DNA from: Ilumatobacteraceae bacterium
GTDB taxonomy: Bacteria; Actinomycetota; Acidimicrobiia; Acidimicrobiales; Ilumatobacteraceae
NCBI GenBank assembly: GCA_049696035.1
Contig: JBAVTH010000242.1
Span: 4,472 to 68,471 of the forward strand
Direction of reading: 5' to 3'
Length of the DNA stretch: 64,000 nt
The notes below the pieces were generated by a model that was given only the letters and a program-made list of their open reading frames with translations, had not been told where the DNA came from and ran no database searches. The position numbers and the translations under genes were made by a program. Positions within the stretch are counted from its first letter, which is position 1. Every line of letters begins with the position of its first letter. This document shows, one piece after another, positions 39,715 through 55,166 of this stretch.

Positions 39715-41370
39715 ATGAATCAGGGTCTTGATCTCGACATGCTCGAGATGACGTTGGCGGCGATCAACGAGTTCGCCGAACGTGAACTGCCGGAGAGCCT
39801 GCTCATCGAGCTCGATGAGCGCGACGAGTTCCCGGCGGCGGCAGTGAAGAAGATGTGCAGCGACGAGCTGGGCGTGCAGCTGCTGTTCATCGAGGAAGCT
39901 CATGGTGGCATGGGCGGCAACGCCTTCGACGTGTATCGCGTGTGCACCCAGATGGCTGCGATCGACCTCGGTGTCGCCACCTCCGTGCTCGCCACCTTCC
40001 TGGGCAGCGACCCGATCCTGATGGGTGGCACTCCCGAGCAGATCCACCACTGGATGAGCCGCATCGCCAACGAAGGCCTGATGATGGCGTATGGCGCGAC
40101 CGAGCCCGAGGCCGGCAGCGACCTCGGCTCGCTGAAGACGGTGGCGGTGCCTGTGGAGATCGACGGCGTCGTCACCGGCTACCGCATCTCGGGCAAGAAG
40201 CAGTGGATCAGCAACGGCGCCGTGGCCGATCTCTACACGATCCTGGCCAACGCGCCCGGTGGCCCGACCTGGTTCGTGCTGGAGCACGACGTGGCCGGCT
40301 TCGACAAGGCGAAGCCGGAGAACAAGCACGGCATCCGCCTGTCCAACACCGCCGCCTTGTTCCTCGACGACGTGTACGTCGACGTGGATCGGCTGGTCGG
40401 CACGGTCGAAGGGCAGGGCCTGTGGCAGGCCCAGCTGGTCTTCGGGTACACGCGTCTGATGGTCGCGGCCTTCGGTCTCGGCGCCGGCTGGGCGGCACTC
40501 GACCGTGCGATCCCGTACTCGGCCGAGCGCATCCAGGCCGGTAGCCCGCTCTCGGAGAAGCAGGGCTACACGCACAAGCTGATCGTGCCGCATGCGGTGC
40601 GCTTGGAGTCGGGGCGCGCCTACATCGAGGAGACCGCCGAGCGCATCGACCGGGGCGGCGAGGGCACGCTCAACACCGAGGGTGCGATCGCCAAGTACGT
40701 GTCCACCGAGGCGGGCAACGCTGCGGCCGACGCGGCCATCCAGGCACTGGGTGGCTACGGCTACACGCACGAGTACATGGTGGAGAAGATCAAGCGCGAC
40801 GTGCGCATCACCACCATCTACGAGGGCACCTCCGAGATCATGGAGATGACCATCAGCCGCGACCGGTGGCAGCAGCACCTGAAGAGCAGTGGCGCGTTCT
40901 ATCGAGATCAGGCCGCCGAGCTGGAAGTGCTCGAGCAACGCCTCCCGCAGGTGGGGGCCGGCATCGCCGCTCTGGCGCACAGGGCGCTTGCCGAACTGAT
41001 GGAGGTCGCCAGGGTGGCGCGGCTCACGCGCAACCAGCACGTCCTGCTGCGCCTGGGTGAACTGGTGGCGATCACGGAGTGCAGTGCGGCGCTGGCGCGC
41101 CGTGCGGCGAGAGCGGCCGACGGAGTGTTGCCACCCAAGGCCGATCACCGGTTCACGCCCGAGGCGCTCGCCGCGGTCAGCCGGGTCAACGCCCGCACCA
41201 CGGCGTTGCGCGTTGCCGGCGAAGGCCTCGGTCTGATCGTCGGCTCGGCCGACGAGAGCGATGTCAGCCGACTGCAGGCAGCGGTCGGGCTGCCTCGAAT
41301 CCTCTCTGCCCAGGCCGGCCAGATCGCCGACATGGACACCATCGCCGACGCCCTCTACGGCCGCGGCTGA
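39715..41370 (+). CDS. Acyl-CoA dehydrogenase family protein with a C-terminal extension of about 170 aa
   Basis: 551 aa. ACAD motifs [18 protein letters not shown] and the catalytic-Glu region [14 protein letters not shown]. After the ACAD core comes an Ala/Arg-rich helical extension. Confidence 0.9.
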
Positions 41371-41422
41371 ACAGCGAAGCACGGCCGGGCGCGTCTCCCG
41401 GTCGAACGAAAGGACATCCGTC

Positions 41423-53300: not shown

Positions 53301-54468
53301 GATGGTGCTCACCGGCAAGCAGGCGCTCGACTTCAGCGGTGGTGTGTCGGCGGAGGACAACCACGGCATCGGCGGCTACGAGCGGGTGATGGGGCCCAAC
53401 GGCCAGGCCCAGTACTGGGCGGCCGACGTACCGGCCGCCTGTGGTGTCTTGCTCGCGCACTACGCCCACAGCTACTCGGCGCCCGGCGAACGCTTCCCGC
53501 GACGGGCGGCGACGTCCGACCCGTTCGACCGAGACGTCCGCTCGGCGCGGCATCACCTGGAGGGCTCCGACCTGGCAACCGTCGGCGACATCTTCAGCGA
53601 GCACAGCAACCCGGAACGCAAGAAGCCCTTCGACATCCGCTCGGTCATGCGGGCCGTGCTCGATGCCGATCACCAGCCGCTCGAACGGTGGGCCGACCTC
53701 GCGGAGAGCGACACAGCGGTGGTGTGGGACGGCCAACTCGGTGGTATCCCCGTCTGTGTCATCGGCATCGAGGCCCACGCACTCGCCCGTCAAGGTCGTC
53801 TGCCTGCTGACGGCCCCGATCAGTGGACATCAGGCACCCTCTTCCCGATGTCGTCGAAGAAGATCGCCCGGGCGGTCAACGCCACGAGCGGCAGCCAGCC
53901 GCTCGTCGTGCTCGCGAACCTGTCCGGTTTCGACGGCTCTCCCGAGTCGATGCGGCGCACCCAGCTCGAGTTCGGTGCCGAGATCGGCCGTGCGGTGGTG
54001 AACTTCCGCGGCCCGATCGTGTTCTGCGTGGTCAGTCGCTTCCATGGCGGAGCGTTCGTGGTCTTCAGTCAGAAGCTGAACCCGATGCTCGAGACGCTGG
54101 CCGTCGAGGGGTCGCACGCCTCGGTGATCGGCGGGTCGCCGGCGGCGGCGGTGGTCTTCGCCGGGGAGGTGGAGAAGCGCACCCGTGCCGATGCCCGCGT
54201 CGTGGAGCTGGAGGCGCGGATCGCATCTGCGGCGCCGGGTGAGCGCGCCACGTTGCGCAGCGAACTGGTGACGACGCTTGCACAGGCGCACTCGGATCAA
54301 CTGGGCGCGGTGGCGGCCGAGTTCGACGCGATCCACAGCGTGGAGCGTGCGCTGGCGGTGGGATCGGTGAGCCGGATCATTCCGGCCGCACAACTGAGGC
54401 CGTTGCTGATCGATGCGGTGGAACGTGGGATGAGCCGTGCGGTCGAACGGTCGAGTGGGGAGATGTGA
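49108..54468 (+). CDS. Single-chain multidomain biotin carboxylase-like protein with eukaryote-style layout (BC-like, BCCP, central region, carboxyltransferase); 1786 aa
   Basis: The GTG at 49108 overlaps the PKS stop (GTGA); the ATG at 49117 is an alternative. BC-like N-terminus (IVNRGAAAMRLI..., ARHIEVLVAGD, QRRSEKV). Biotinyl motif IESMKME (Lys555, codon 50770-50772). CT strings SAGAKIAMDSG, LGGIPVCVIGIE and LANLSGFDGS. Confidence 0.9.
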   Translation: MTEMATITRLAIVNRGAAAMRLINAAREYAAELQRDLQIVAVHVDADARSLFVREADFAVRVDGPISVDNLDALEEALRLAEVDGAWVGWGPLAQQPAFAEMCVRMGITNVGLGADTLRSIADRSLLQAAAESAGGRLSPLEIVERGYARHIEVLVAGDRFGDVWAVGVHDGTLQRRSEKVLVESADERLIGVAGDLLRSVAVRVASLTGVVGAATIAFVREDLAADVSLLRISGGLPLGHGVTEIAGGIDLAKLQLHIAEGGRLVGAAPIGDGHAIAVRLNAEDAELGFAPAPGRVLLLQVPTGPGLRIDPAVSEGDVVRPGDDPTLAEVVAWGRDRDEARVRLRRALAQLPVVLDGGTTNKGFLLDLLDRAEVRAGQYDTGWLDRLAAAGETAGREHGDKAVLMAAVDAYDERQRSSRARLFATARRGRPEVSSELGHRVELCHRGNEYGVFVRRTGRRQYRVAVDGVEIGLVVTRLGRYQSRLDVGGRSHRIVSAIQAGDHLVEVDGVPHRLSRGDGGIVRSGLPGVVVAVHVQVGDEVAVNDALATIESMKMESPVLAPFAGRVRQVCIGTNVQVDSGAPLVHLEPISHGRAALGESRCTFSAPDDPALPSVASRFAANLDTLTRLIMGYDVAVAATKRVAAEQVDIARELGADAPERVVGELRLLDVFADVRALFRSERDPSGNDLEEADLLVTSPQEYMHAFLRAPGPNVEGVPQRYLEALGRALAHYGIRSLEHTEALEEALFWIMQSRGRIDAQVPVIVAVLNHWLDRPAVGVGEQLRETLDRLVAATQRDHPVIADLAREVRFTAIDRPIVDAVRRDVLTAALAHLDDLVAGNGDRAGHLEAIVACAEPLEFALLDRARSGTVATADAVAELLTRRHHRWGTFGEFTRLGHAPVAMAVDHVADDGATVRIVAACAPFSSLTAAVAAVLDHARDSATPVQAEVYTWLDDGDVDDDAVTAAAEAALAHHWTGDADTSVQYAVIAVAGTSEDSDLGDRRVLHVTFRPTLEGLVEDRFLRGLHPMMAERLRLWRLSNFNLERLASTTGVHLFRGIGRDNASDERLFAIAEVRDLTPVRDDGGRIVALPELERTLLAAMEAIRRVQAPRPLGQRLWWNRIVLRVWPPVTFSPEEIGRLAAELAGAATGLGLEEVHVLCSRVDAATGAKRDVALRFTSTTGSSFVLRETEQPTEPLVPLDEYSRKVVQSRRRGTIYPYELIRGLVAPHAGGRSEITGGGFTEYDLGETGALVPVHRPPGRNVASIVVGVVTNTSDRYPEGMIRVALLGDPTRALGALAEPECVRIMAAIDLAEQMGVPVEWYALSAGAKIAMDSGTENMDWIADVLRRIIEFTQQGGEINVVVTGINVGAQPYWNAEATMLMHTKGILVMTPSSAMVLTGKQALDFSGGVSAEDNHGIGGYERVMGPNGQAQYWAADVPAACGVLLAHYAHSYSAPGERFPRRAATSDPFDRDVRSARHHLEGSDLATVGDIFSEHSNPERKKPFDIRSVMRAVLDADHQPLERWADLAESDTAVVWDGQLGGIPVCVIGIEAHALARQGRLPADGPDQWTSGTLFPMSSKKIARAVNATSGSQPLVVLANLSGFDGSPESMRRTQLEFGAEIGRAVVNFRGPIVFCVVSRFHGGAFVVFSQKLNPMLETLAVEGSHASVIGGSPAAAVVFAGEVEKRTRADARVVELEARIASAAPGERATLRSELVTTLAQAHSDQLGAVAAEFDAIHSVERALAVGSVSRIIPAAQLRPLLIDAVERGMSRAVERSSGEM

Positions 54469-55166
54469 CGCACACGGCGGCCGCCGTCGTCCACTGGCTG
54501 CAACGAAGGTTGCACGACCTGCCGGACGGGGATGGGTGGCTCTCGACACGTGAACGCACGGTGCAGGACCGTCTGGTGGTGCCGAAGCGGCGGGCGGATT
54601 GGCGCCTCGGTAGATGGACGGCGAAGGCTCTTGTAGCGGCGGTACTCGATGTGGAGGTGGTGCGAGTCTCGATCATCGCCGCCCCCGACGGCGCCCCGGA
54701 GGCCCTCGTGGACGAGTTGCCTGCACCGATCTCGTTGTCCATCAGCCATCGAGCCGGGGTCGGGTTGGCCGCGGTGGGTGAGCACGTCGTGGTCGGTGGT
54801 GATCTGGAGGTGATCGAGCCCCGGTCGCCGGCATTCGTGCGCGAGTGGTTCGGCGAGCACGAGCAGGCGTTGATCGCCGAGATCCGCGATCCCCGGCGGC
54901 GCGACGAGCTGACGTGTCTGCTGTGGTCGGTGAAGGAGGCCTCGGCGAAGGTGCTGCGGGAGGGTTTGCGACTCGATCCGCGAGGCGCGTCGGTGGTCCT
55001 GGACGACGACCGGGTGCCCGACGAACCGAGTGGTCACTGGCAGCGCTCGACGGTGCGGTGGGCCACGGAGGGCCGTGTCGTCTCCGGGTGGTGGCGCGTC
55101 GACGGGTCGTTCGTACGAGCGATCGCGGGTGATCGGCCCACCGACGTACCTCAGGAGCTGCGGTGA
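54465..55166 (+). CDS. Sfp-type 4'-phosphopantetheinyl transferase
   Basis: 233 aa. The GTG at 54465 overlaps the carboxylase stop (GTGA). Motifs SISHRAG, VGGDLE and WSVKEASAK. Confidence 0.85.
   Translation: MTHTAAAVVHWLQRRLHDLPDGDGWLSTRERTVQDRLVVPKRRADWRLGRWTAKALVAAVLDVEVVRVSIIAAPDGAPEALVDELPAPISLSISHRAGVGLAAVGEHVVVGGDLEVIEPRSPAFVREWFGEHEQALIAEIRDPRRRDELTCLLWSVKEASAKVLREGLRLDPRGASVVLDDDRVPDEPSGHWQRSTVRWATEGRVVSGWWRVDGSFVRAIAGDRPTDVPQELR

Follow-up and report, generated by a model that had tools for sequence, protein, structure and literature searches.

The closest described systems are the Type R secondary lipid synthases of Shulse & Allen (2011), in which a KS-MAT-CLF-ACPn-KR synthase is accompanied by a phosphopantetheinyl transferase (PPTase) and, in Koribacter, an ACC gene lies between the two (PMC3098273). 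Type R was catalogued in 2011 without an assigned product (PMC3098273). Here we describe a block of four same-strand open reading frames (positions 39715-55166, plus strand) from an Ilumatobacteraceae MAG, encoding in order an acyl-CoA dehydrogenase (ACAD), a synthase (PKS), a carboxylase homologue and a PPTase; positions refer to the window, the whole 64,000-nt stretch of DNA that was analysed. Judged by the architecture published for the Type R genomes (Koribacter, Solibacter, Roseiflexus, Elusimicrobium), the block is very probably the Ilumatobacteraceae (Acidimicrobiia) copy of a cross-phylum Type R operon in its ACC-containing variant. Its features are:

39715..41370, plus strand: VLCAD-type ACAD, 551 aa, catalytic Glu in IYEGTSEI at nt 40816-40839 (Pfam Acyl-CoA_dh_N, _M, _1)
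40864..41367, plus strand: all-helical C-terminal domain of the ACAD, residues 384-551 (AlphaFold, Foldseek)
41423..49111, plus strand: iterative PfaA-like type I synthase, KS-AT-KS'-carrier-KR-DH, 2562 aa (Pfam, NCBIfam)
41423..42814, plus strand: KS1 with Cys206, His343, His380 and a PUFA-synthase-type N-terminal insertion (Pfam ketoacyl-synt, Ketoacyl-synt_C, KAsynt_C_assoc)
43214..44161, plus strand: acyltransferase (AT), malonyl-type, GHSLGE and HAFH (Pfam Acyl_transf_1, NCBIfam FabD match)
44423..46102, plus strand: second ketosynthase KS', FabF-like, with Cys1241, His1388 and His1428 kept (NCBIfam fabF best match, 144 bits)
46271..46471, plus strand: single carrier domain, motif DLGVDTV, Thr1647 encoded by ACG 46361-46363 (Pfam PP-binding)
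47333..47938, plus strand: ketoreductase (KR), TGAAGSI and YSAAN (Pfam KR, adh_short; PfaA C-terminal region match, 158 bits)
48170..49027, plus strand: PKS-type dehydratase (PS-DH), HxxxGxxxxP motif HRIDGTPVLP (Pfam PKS_DH_N, PS-DH)
49108..54468, plus strand: single-chain, eukaryote-type acetyl-CoA-carboxylase homologue, 1786 aa, with BC remnant, BCCP, central and CT domains (Pfam)
49108..50307, plus strand: degenerate biotin-carboxylase (BC) domain (aligned with E. coli AccC, with yeast ACC and with family members whose domain is intact)
50683..50871, plus strand: BCCP (biotinyl) domain, E-S-M-K-M-E intact at nt 50761-50778 (Pfam Biotin_lipoyl, motif conservation)
52132..52545, plus strand: ACC central domain segment (Pfam ACC_central)
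52915..54204, plus strand: carboxyltransferase (CT) domain, the best-conserved part of the carboxylase (Pfam Carboxyl_trans)
54465..55166, plus strand: Sfp-type 4'-phosphopantetheinyl transferase, 233 aa, GGDLE and WSVKEASAK intact (Pfam ACPS, 4PPT_N)

The ACAD frame runs from an ATG at 39715 to a stop ending at 41370 and is followed by a 52-nt gap, containing GAAAGGA, before the PKS ATG at 41423. The PKS TGA (49109-49111) overlaps the carboxylase GTG at 49108, as does the TGA of the carboxylase (54466-54468) with the GTG of the PPTase (54465), so that the reading frames and both GTGA overlaps from which an earlier note on this DNA had proposed a co-translated block were found again. The carboxylase could start equally well at an in-frame ATG (49117; GGAAG lies 8 nt before it), and translational coupling to the PKS is predicted from either start. 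The absence of terminator-like sites on the plus strand within the four-gene block weakly suggests a single transcript. Relative to the closest relative (L005), which served as reference, dN/dS came to 0.06 (ACAD), 0.12 (PKS), 0.10-0.19 (carboxylase domains) and 0.32 (PPTase), with dS against relatives at ~1, and purifying selection acts on all four genes.

The synthase is very widespread; NCBI protein P0001, which comes from an Ilumatobacteraceae MAG, is 100% identical to it. Nearly all scored candidates (7998 of 8000) had E<=1e-20, the top 120 homologues (59-100% identical) came from Acidimicrobiia, Thermoleophilia, Acidobacteriota and Binatia, and a scan of species-representative genomes gave at least 519 confirmed stretches encoding the same synthase. 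An ACAD lies immediately upstream in 68 of 69 informative loci and a carboxylase downstream in 59 of 61, while the PPTase is present in 47 of the 61 loci with a long enough flank. Two independently picked ACAD homologues (KSB1, Nanopelagicales) also adjoin a synthase, and the ACAD is genetically locked to it whichever gene the search starts from. Conservation of the four-gene synteny in relatives, on which the earlier note had staked its reading, was looked for and strongly found; with its order repeated across several phyla and dozens of genomes, the arrangement is far beyond chance. The hydrolase (55189-56199) and aminotransferase (56275-57462), which that note placed outside the operon, are indeed missing at the syntenic loci (L005, L006, L001, L004 and L087-L089).

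Genes for both ETF subunits (α and β) and a membrane FeS-CCG protein lie beside the ACAD, within 10 kb upstream, in 30 of 63 loci, and in Acidobacteria the genes form one co-directional string (WS/DGAT, FeS, ETFβ, ETFα, ACAD, PKS, ACC, PPTase), WS/DGAT being found in the acidobacterial loci and a few others. The FeS protein is EtfD/EMO-like and combines a transmembrane domain at its N-terminus with two 4Fe-4S motifs and a CCG domain; the ETF subunits of relatives match neither the bifurcating nor the non-bifurcating type clearly. No ETF, EtfD or WS/DGAT gene was found in the 64,000-nt window, and the ETF/FeS set is missing within 10 kb in about half of the relatives. None of the annotated loci has an ER domain or a PfaD-like or MDR-type ER gene, and no release enzyme is conserved among the relatives' loci. 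Within the synthase superfamily, a clostridial branch has no adjoining ACAD or ACC, so the synthase core does not intrinsically need an ACAD.

Pfam and NCBIfam place KS at PKS residues 1-411, AT at 598-913, a second KS-like region at about 1000-1560, PP-binding at 1617-1683, KR at 1971-2172 and PKS_DH_N/PS-DH at 2250-2535, and detect neither an ER nor a TE domain. The earlier note had anticipated both this absence and the domain order, and all of its motifs (DAACAS, HGTST, NIGH, GHSLGE, HAFH, NSACAS, HETYTP, TKGVTGH and the KIGGW... insertion, KS1 residues 60-83) were located as expected. Its assignment of KS1 to the PfaA/PfaC type is borne out by the top NCBIfam match, TIGR02813 PfaA (residues 57-951 of the frame read from 41261; 808.8 bits, under the model's cut-off of 1010.1), and by PDB 6riw "ORF10", presumably the Moritella PfaC KS-CLF, which aligns to residues 1-464 and is the only solved structure aligning from residue 1. 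KS' occupies the position named CLF by Shulse & Allen, yet retains the Cys and both His; these residues are conserved in alignment A1, where the mean column identity is 78%, and in nearly all loci. Its closest PDB matches are FabF enzymes, and both ketosynthases are predicted to be catalytically complete.

The carrier domain contains no Ser at all, and in a residue-level alignment Thr1647 stands opposite the DS(L/I) Ser of solved ACPs. The ratio of Thr to Ser was 549:2 in the G-x-D-[ST]-x-K motif of 120 close homologues and 407:9 for a slightly broader carrier pattern in the representatives of 150 clusters, with identities as low as 36%, and Thr occupies the phosphopantetheinyl-Ser position in >99% of the ~950 carriers counted. 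To our knowledge, described carrier proteins all carry Ser at this position and phosphopantetheinylation of Thr has never been reported, nor is E. coli AcpS known to modify an S36T variant of ACP. The exact alignment, the conservation, the co-encoded intact PPTase and the fact that the only all-Ser carrier variant seen bears its own fused PPTase argue that Thr1647 is probably the actual pantetheine attachment site. The substitution is missing from the earlier note, and Thr is kept across the family although a Ser codon is one nucleotide change away. The Ilumatobacteraceae synthase has one carrier, compared with 3-7 in most relatives.

The YEG Glu of the ACAD is invariant in 30 homologues. The AlphaFold model (pLDDT 86, pTM 0.90) matches 3owa, 2z1q, human VLCAD and ACAD9 over its full length (Foldseek TM 0.74-0.79, 550-583 aligned columns), and the tail of about 170 aa that had been thought unusual turns out to be the helical C-terminal domain usual in VLCAD, ACAD9 and long bacterial ACADs, 70-75% identical across phyla. 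The protein is thus predicted to be a catalytically complete VLCAD-type flavoenzyme, whose fold would suit long chains. Among NCBIfam models it scores best against AcrC (acryloyl-CoA reductase) and cyclohexane-1-carbonyl-CoA dehydrogenase, both ETF-coupled enzymes that run reductively. A reversed chain of ACAD, ETF and ETF:menaquinone oxidoreductase, for which menaquinol (-80 mV) is a favourable electron donor, has been discussed (PMC10818641). The ACAD may therefore act as a trans enoyl reductase, an assignment we put a little short of even; ACAD, ETF and EtfD-like protein also make up the ordinary first step of β-oxidation, and the sequence fits either direction of electron flow.

The carboxylase homologue, with yeast ACC (5csk) as its closest solved relative, lacks some 75 residues of the ATP-grasp lid in its BC domain, the GGGG loop among them (deletion at about nt 49534-49560); RISGGLPLGH (nt 49801-49830) stands in place of the catalytic E-x-N-x-R-x-Q-V-E-H, and NRGE reads NRGA. 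L005 and L006 share this lesion, which is thus common to three diverged genomes. In at least five lineages the BC domain has decayed independently with the biotinyl-Lys and CT retained. The remnant's dN/dS of 0.13-0.19 indicates that it is maintained, and the domain appears catalytically dead yet under purifying selection. The earlier description as a dedicated carboxylase thus needs qualifying for this lineage, since the protein could not carboxylate its own biotin; a housekeeping BC subunit would have to do so in trans, or else BCCP-CT would act as a transcarboxylase. The biotin site and CT are intact, and CT is 70-77% identical to acidobacterial and Thermoleophilia homologues in its two best-conserved 150-column blocks, with a dN/dS of 0.10-0.15.

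As our best model, which we hold to be slightly more probable than not, we infer a self-contained iterative fatty-acyl synthase with the ACAD as trans enoyl reductase. The dedicated PPTase would place phosphopantetheine on the carrier Thr, AT would load malonyl units, taken to come from the carboxylase homologue, KS and KS' would elongate the chain, and KR and DH would yield a trans-2-enoyl-carrier. The ACAD, working reductively, would supply the missing enoyl reduction with electrons passed from menaquinol or NADH through ETF and the membrane EtfD/EMO-like FeS oxidoreductase. The product would be long, largely saturated acyl chains, which in many relatives would be passed on to a WS/DGAT to form wax-ester or TAG-type neutral lipids.

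Alternatively, the ACAD could run oxidatively, desaturating or tailoring a tethered or released chain or a fatty-acyl starter, with menaquinone receiving its electrons by way of ETF and EtfD. The ER-less synthase would then make an unsaturated lipid, such as a polyene or a 3-hydroxy compound, in place of a saturated chain. ACAD, ETF and membrane FeS oxidoreductase do form a canonical oxidative chain, the ETF type is ambiguous, and the clostridial synthases suggest a core that completes its product without enoyl reduction. However, KR and DH already make the α,β double bond in each cycle, so an α,β-dehydrogenase would add nothing to the nascent chain; the ACAD is, as the earlier note held, the sole conserved redox partner (again 68 of 69 loci), no other ER was ever seen, and the WS/DGAT neighbours indicate ordinary long acyl chains. 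We consider this reading unlikely, though worth weighing. A mycolate-like system, in which the carboxylase takes long-chain acyl-CoA as its substrate, like AccD4 in the Pks13 system, and one KS performs a head-to-head Claisen condensation, would account for two complete KS in one protein and for a carboxylase linked to a PKS as tightly as in fadD32-pks13-accD4; a Pks13 NCBIfam match also covers the KS-AT part, far under cut-off. It is improbable given malonyl-type AT motifs, a eukaryote-type carboxylase with an ACC_central domain and yeast ACC as nearest solved relative, the lack of a conserved FadD32-like ligase in the cluster, and KR and DH domains that point to repeated cycles of reduction.

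The single carrier and the lost BC residues and lid might instead mark the cluster as a relic decaying in the Ilumatobacteraceae, which we regard as very improbable: every other catalytic motif is intact, the BC lesion is common to the three diverged genomes, the repeated BC decays elsewhere spare biotinyl-Lys and CT, and the dN/dS values (0.06-0.32 for the four genes, at dS ~1) count against decay. Hardly credible at all is the reading as a canonical PUFA (pfa) synthase that has diverged, or as a polyene synthase of the enediyne PksE type, even with PfaA as the highest-scoring NCBIfam model, 6riw matching the KS1 N-terminus and the KR-DH region matching the PfaA C-terminus. The PfaA score stays under its cut-off and neither window nor relatives hold genes for PfaB, a PfaC FabA-type DH or a PfaD ER; compared with PksE, the Ilumatobacteraceae synthase lacks a fused PPTase and an enediyne cassette and has one KS too many. 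We therefore agree with the earlier note that the system is not pfa, PksE or a modular PKS. Its statement that the block matches no recognised class gives way, because the block fits the catalogued Type R (Shulse & Allen 2011; PMC3098273). That note had also asked for a literature cluster of the same composition with an assigned product: no product has been assigned to Type R, but the cluster type itself is already published.

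The block is a real, well-conserved operon, present here in a form particular to its lineage: the synthase has just one carrier, and the biotin-carboxylase (BC) domain of the carboxylase homologue is dead. ORF listing and translation bore out the four co-directional genes described in the earlier note, in a window of high GC content (~69%). The genes are as follows:

39715-41370, plus strand: ACAD, 551 aa, from the ORF listing and translation
41423-49111, plus strand: synthase (PKS), 2562 aa, with its ATG 52 nt past the ACAD stop, behind GAAAGGA
49108-54468, plus strand: carboxylase homologue, 1786 aa, with its GTG overlapping the synthase TGA as GTGA
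54465-55166, plus strand: PPTase, 233 aa, overlapping the carboxylase homologue through a GTGA of the same kind

No terminator-like sites were found on the plus strand within the block. An alternative start for the carboxylase homologue, to be set against the GTG at 49108, is the in-frame ATG at 49117, which is preceded by an SD-like GGAAG (49104-49108); the N-termini of homologues (MTVITRLAIV...) agree with this shorter form. Pfam and NCBIfam place the synthase domains in the order KS, AT, second KS-like domain, PP-binding domain, KR and PKS_DH_N/PS-DH, and detect neither an ER nor a TE domain, in agreement with the earlier reading, all quoted motifs of which were located in the protein. The second KS (KS') is FabF-like and, like that of essentially every relative, retains Cys-His-His; it is therefore not a classical Cys-less CLF. 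The PPTase matches Pfam ACPS and 4PPT_N, with intact Sfp-type motifs (GGDLE and WSVKEASAK). Two long ORFs opposite the ACAD and PKS genes, at 38230-41496 (minus strand, 1088 aa) and 41264-45931 (minus strand, 1555 aa), were rejected as high-GC artefacts, and a third-position GC screen kept plus-strand frames only.

For the synthase and the ACAD alike, an NCBI protein with 100% identity exists, in both cases from an Ilumatobacteraceae (Acidimicrobiia) MAG. The best 120 synthase matches range from 59 to 100% identity and belong to Acidimicrobiia, Thermoleophilia, Acidobacteriota (Sulfotelmatobacter) and Binatia, with acidobacterial MAG homologues of the same gene order at 59-67%. An exhaustive search with the KS'-carrier region against 1.84 billion cluster representatives returned 1285 representatives at E<=1e-30, and an alignment of the second KS, run against a single genome for each GTDB species, yielded at least 519 confirmed stretches. 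Hosts among the matches listed include Solirubrobacterales, Thermoleophilia, Ilumatobacteraceae, Frankiaceae, Mycobacteriales, Terriglobia and Calditrichia, and those in culture, again among the matches listed, include Kineosporia sp. A_224 and Paractinoplanes durhamensis NBRC 14914. The superfamily also has larger members, such as the database proteins P0318 (4041 aa), P0291 (4019 aa) and similar representatives, in which the KS'-carrier region begins near residue 2000; in P0318, the sole large member scanned, ~690 residues at the N-terminus are unassigned, and a third stretch of KS is present.

The four-gene synteny on which the earlier note had staked its claim is conserved in related genomes:

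Gene neighbours of the synthase, counted by tblastn of the window proteins and of acidobacterial-locus neighbours in loci with long enough flanks only
ACAD immediately upstream of the synthase: 68 of 69 loci
Carboxylase downstream of the synthase: 59 of 61 loci
PPTase within the available flank: 47 of 61 loci
ETFα and ETFβ no more than 10 kb upstream: 30 of 63 loci
Membrane FeS-CCG protein no more than 10 kb upstream: 30 of 63 loci
WS/DGAT acyltransferase no more than 10 kb upstream: 14 of 63 loci

A reverse search starting from the ACAD found homologues in KSB1 and Nanopelagicales that adjoin the same synthase. The Acidobacteria have a longer co-directional string, (AdhE-like)-STAS-WS/DGAT-FeS-ETFβ-ETFα-ACAD-synthase-ACC-PPTase-GMC oxidoreductase; none of the additional genes of this string was found in the window flanks, the ETF/FeS module included. 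Other neighbours occur in individual loci. In two thermoleophilian loci (L004, 2494-8146; L088, 958-4148) genes for a GH65 phosphorylase and a β-phosphoglucomutase-like HAD protein adjoin the cluster, accompanied in L004 by trehalose-phosphatase and WS/DGAT genes, which may hint at glycolipid or trehalose-ester products. In a close relative (L006, 26289-27653), plsX, an acpP-like ACP gene and rnc are found ~2 kb from the cluster, and no fabH, fabD, fabG or fabF was found there between plsX and acpP.

The immediate flanks of the block in the window hold PdxA-like, sugar-acid-kinase-like and acyl-CoA synthetase genes upstream, and a β-lactamase-family serine hydrolase (55189-56400, minus strand) and an aminotransferase (to 57462) downstream. 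None of these flanking genes is syntenic in the relatives examined. The hydrolase and the aminotransferase had been put forward as release or tailoring enzymes, a role we reject on that ground. The gene context of the clostridial branch of the family suggested two upstream genes as possible partners:

18657-19844, plus strand: FabH-like KSIII, 20 kb upstream of the block
34549-36153, plus strand: acyl-CoA/AMP ligase (the acyl-CoA synthetase), 3.5 kb upstream of the block

These were also rejected, since unrelated genes lie between them and the block and they are not syntenic in close relatives. Elsewhere in the window, a 1004-aa ORF (15638-18652, minus strand) fuses an APH-type kinase, Peptidase_M23 and a class-III aminotransferase, an unusual combination. 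A 1133-aa DAO-FAO_M-GCV_T protein (20060-23461, minus strand) resembles sarcosine or dimethylglycine dehydrogenase; its ~320 N-terminal residues have no Pfam match, and as the coordinates run from stop to stop, part of this stretch may precede the true start.

The carrier domain of the synthase has the motif DLDLEADLGVDTVKQAELF and contains no serine at all. It matches the PF00550 fold family (Pfam, 29.5 bits), but the serine expected in (D/H)S(L/I) at the start of helix II is absent, and Thr1647 stands in its place; in a residue-level alignment this threonine falls exactly opposite the phosphopantetheinyl-Ser of PigH, the Aquifex ACP and the S. coelicolor ACP. The ratio of Thr to Ser at the carrier position was 549:2 in 120 close homologues, with a single Ser carrier among the genomic loci examined, and 407:9 in 150 cluster representatives that reach down to 36% identity and include cellulolytic Clostridia. 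Because serine is one nucleotide away from the ACG codon, we infer that threonine has been selected at this position rather than just tolerated. Carrier number is more variable, with one in the window and its two closest relatives and three to seven in most other members, and no strict correlation with loss of the BC was found across the loci compared. Tandem carriers increase throughput in PUFA synthases (PMC5067506), and a single carrier would be expected to give a lower flux through the same chemistry. The sole all-Ser protein seen was P0284 (locus L090, 3234 aa), which has five Ser and no Thr carriers, a PPTase fused to its C-terminus, and neither an ACAD nor a large ACC adjoining; it may be useful as a natural control for co-evolution of Thr carriers and PPTase.

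The closest solved relative of the carboxylase homologue is yeast ACC (5csk), and Pfam identifies ACC_central and Carboxyl_trans domains. It has the same order as this eukaryote-type single-chain enzyme (BC, BT/BCCP, central, CT), with a conserved biotin motif and carboxyltransferase (CT) domain, whereas the BC of the window lineage lacks the ATP-grasp lid and the catalytic residues. Approximately 75 residues of the lid are deleted, the GGGG loop among them, the catalytic E-x-N-x-R-x-Q-V-E-H reads RISGGLPLGH where intact homologues have EMNTRLQVEH, and further changes convert NRGE to NRGA, GDK to ADR and QRRHQK to QRRSEK. An identical lesion is common to two diverged relatives, L006 and the closest relative, L005; other BC lesions occur in at least five further actinobacterial lineages, cultured Kineosporia among them, and the BC is intact in Acidobacteria and most Solirubrobacterales. 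The biotinyl-Lys is kept in all carboxylase homologues compared, lying in the window in ESMKME (residues 552-557, BCCP), and the CT is the best-conserved region, its best blocks being 70-77% identical to BC-intact homologues. The dN/dS of the BC remnant (0.13-0.19) is near that of the CT (0.10-0.15); this low value, together with the retained biotinyl-Lys and CT, argues for a maintained pseudo-enzyme domain rather than decay, and the dN/dS values rule out the block as a relic undergoing pseudogenisation. With its lid and catalytic residues missing, the homologue of the window lineage cannot be a self-sufficient carboxylase. Three Ilumatobacteraceae loci (L025, L029 and L033) have a BC that is still more reduced, and their biotin motif is (S/T)MKL in place of MKM, with the Lys kept.

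The catalytic Glu of the ACAD (YEG) occupies the MCAD position and is invariant among homologues. Its AlphaFold model (pLDDT 86, pTM 0.90) superposes over the full length on B. anthracis 3owa, T. thermophilus 2z1q, human VLCAD and ACAD9 (TM 0.74-0.79), and MCAD-size ACADs match the first ~385 residues only. The C-terminal tail, which the earlier note had called unusual, is therefore the known VLCAD-type helical domain of ~170-180 aa. The long ACADs (VLCAD, ACAD9 and long bacterial enzymes; PDB 3owa, 2z1q, 3b96 and 8phe) share the core, the catalytic Glu and this ~170-aa helical C-terminus, but their identity to the ACAD here is just 20-24%, and the gene here belongs to a synthase operon and is not devoted to β-oxidation. 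Ahead of the ACAD, roughly half of the relatives encode ETFβ, ETFα and a transmembrane 2x[4Fe-4S] CCG protein. This last protein combines a multi-helix membrane domain at its N-terminus with two CxxCxxCxxxC motifs and a CCG domain, features that assign it to the EtfD / ETF:menaquinone-oxidoreductase type. The arrangement is like that of the Bcd/EtfAB, CarCDE, EMO and mycobacterial EtfD chains; however, these serve fermentation, respiration or β-oxidation, whereas the module of the relatives adjoins a biosynthetic megasynthase.

The synthase provides for condensation, ketoreduction and dehydration but not for enoyl reduction, and the ACAD is almost never missing, which favours the ACAD as its candidate enoyl reductase in trans. 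The block would then form a self-contained iterative fatty-acyl synthase, with malonyl-CoA supplied by the linked ACC homologue, the carrier activated by the linked PPTase, and the product passed to WS/DGAT-type acyltransferases where these are present. In the window lineage, either a housekeeping BC would carboxylate the biotin of the BC-dead homologue, or the homologue would act as a transcarboxylase. In butyrate, caffeate and acrylate metabolism, ACAD/ETF systems work in the reductive direction, and the phyla carrying the cluster are, as far as is known, menaquinone users. For a chain of ACAD, ETF and EMO run in reverse, menaquinol (-80 mV) has been discussed as a favourable donor (PMC10818641). 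On sequence grounds, the oxidative direction is a live possibility for the ACAD. It is compatible with the ambiguous ETF type, the closest match of ETFβ being the non-bifurcating Methylophilus ETF and that of ETFα the bifurcating C. difficile EtfA. It is likewise compatible with the clostridial branch, which has neither ACAD nor ACC. In the ACAD-less loci L038 (Frankiaceae, with an AMP-ligase downstream), L090, L093 and L094, no canonical ER replacing the ACAD was found. A role for the carboxylase in a mycolate-like condensation is unlikely, as the AT is malonyl-type and the CT is ACC-type.

Favouring reduction by the ACAD, we tentatively propose a new biochemical type of fatty-acid/lipid megasynthase in which phosphopantetheine would be held on Thr through a co-evolved PPTase, enoyl reduction would be VLCAD-like and draw on the quinone pool or NADH via ETF and an EtfD/EMO-like protein rather than on an NAD(P)H-dependent ER, and the BC-dead ACC of the window lineage would need a carboxylase partner in trans. 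Taken as a whole, this proposal is possible but rather doubtful. If true, these would be the first natural Thr-linked carrier proteins. Should the model of the ACAD as enoyl reductase hold, the hosts would have, as a second and self-contained source of fatty acids, a system coupled to the respiratory chain that possibly serves storage lipids, with relevance to soil carbon turnover and lipid biomarkers.

The cluster type is already known but functionally uncharacterised. Fifteen years after it was catalogued, the literature searched (most subscription journals lay outside it) yielded the 2011 catalogue paper alone, with no study of its product, mechanism or function, no report of natural Thr-linked carriers and no description of an ACAD/ETF enoyl reductase for it. 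The points of interest are the Thr carriers, the ACAD/ETF coupling and the recurrent pseudo-BC domain. That Thr invariably replaces the universal phosphopantetheinyl-Ser is a simple anomaly, open to direct test, in a protein modification that ranks among the best studied, and how a pseudo-enzyme domain evolves is shown cleanly by the repeated, selected loss of BC activity from a fused ACC. Hundreds of species of bacteria abundant in soil and freshwater carry the operon, spanning Acidobacteriota, Thermoleophilia/Solirubrobacterales, Acidimicrobiia and some Frankiales, Micromonosporales and Mycobacteriales. Experiments are feasible in cultured hosts, Koribacter and Solibacter being known from the literature besides those found here.

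Comparison with known systems places the block apart from several established classes. A mycolate-type condensation system (FadD32-Pks13-AccD4) would have the Pks13 order ACP-KS-AT-ACP-TE, FadD32 and a separate CT β-subunit; here the Pks13 model reaches just 396.9 bits, its cut-off being 2100, and there is neither a TE nor a conserved ligase. Enediyne PksE (KS-AT-ACP-KR-DH-PPTase) shares the iterative KS-AT...KR-DH order and the lack of an ER and TE, and the rare variant P0284 shares its C-terminal fused PPTase; in contrast to PksE, the block has an extra KS domain, a separate PPTase gene, no enediyne cassette genes in the window or TE, and another gene neighbourhood. With the Pfa PUFA synthases (PfaA-E) of marine Gammaproteobacteria, myxobacteria and thraustochytrids, it shares a PfaA/PfaC-type KS with N-terminal insertion, a MAT, a PfaA-like carrier, a C-terminus of KR and PKS-type DH, an Sfp-type PfaE-like PPTase and, in most family members, tandem carriers. 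The PfaA model TIGR02813, however, reaches 808.8 bits against a cut-off of 1010.1, and neither PfaB, nor the PfaC FabA-type DH pair, nor the PfaD FMN enoyl reductase was found in the window or syntenic loci. Instead, the PfaA-like protein itself includes the second KS, the carriers have Thr rather than Ser, and the ACAD and ACC homologue replace the other subunits. The defining features of both classes thus fail, and the earlier exclusion of a canonical PUFA synthase and of an enediyne PksE was sound.

The pfa-like clusters have been sorted into types A-T by Shulse & Allen 2011 (PMC3098273), who report Type T in Clostridium thermocellum only. The clostridial branch of the present family (Acetivibrio, Ruminiclostridium and Pseudobacteroides), which may correspond to this type, shares KS-AT-KS'-(Thr-carrier)n-KR-DH and ~36% identity over KS'-carrier; over that region its representative P0372 and the window are 36% identical, and P0372 has three Thr carriers. 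The branch differs in having KSIII-ACP-KSIII-AMP-ligase upstream and no ACAD or ACC, with a PPTase nearby in one of two loci; these are the Acetivibrio cellulolyticus locus L093 and L094, a contig with the synthase that NCBI names for Ruminiclostridium herbifermentans, in which a PPTase and a hydrolase follow the synthase.

Type R, the "secondary lipid synthase" of Koribacter versatilis, Solibacter usitatus, Roseiflexus spp. and Elusimicrobium minutum, is described as one PfaA homologue (KS-MAT-CLF(second KS)-ACP-KR) with three to six tandem ACPs and a PPTase gene following, with an ACC gene between the two in Koribacter (PMC3098273). The block resembles it in domain order, in the PPTase downstream, in the intervening ACC as in Koribacter, and in a taxon range that includes Acidobacteria. 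It differs in having one carrier instead of a tandem array of three to six, a full Cys-His-His triad in the "CLF" and a dead BC in the carboxylase. The available text on Type R mentions no conserved upstream ACAD or ETF/FeS genes, and the words serine and threonine are absent from it (PMC3098273). The earlier note had held that the block fits no recognised class; this stands insofar as no characterised system matches it, but, judged from architecture and gene order alone, the block is a member of Type R.
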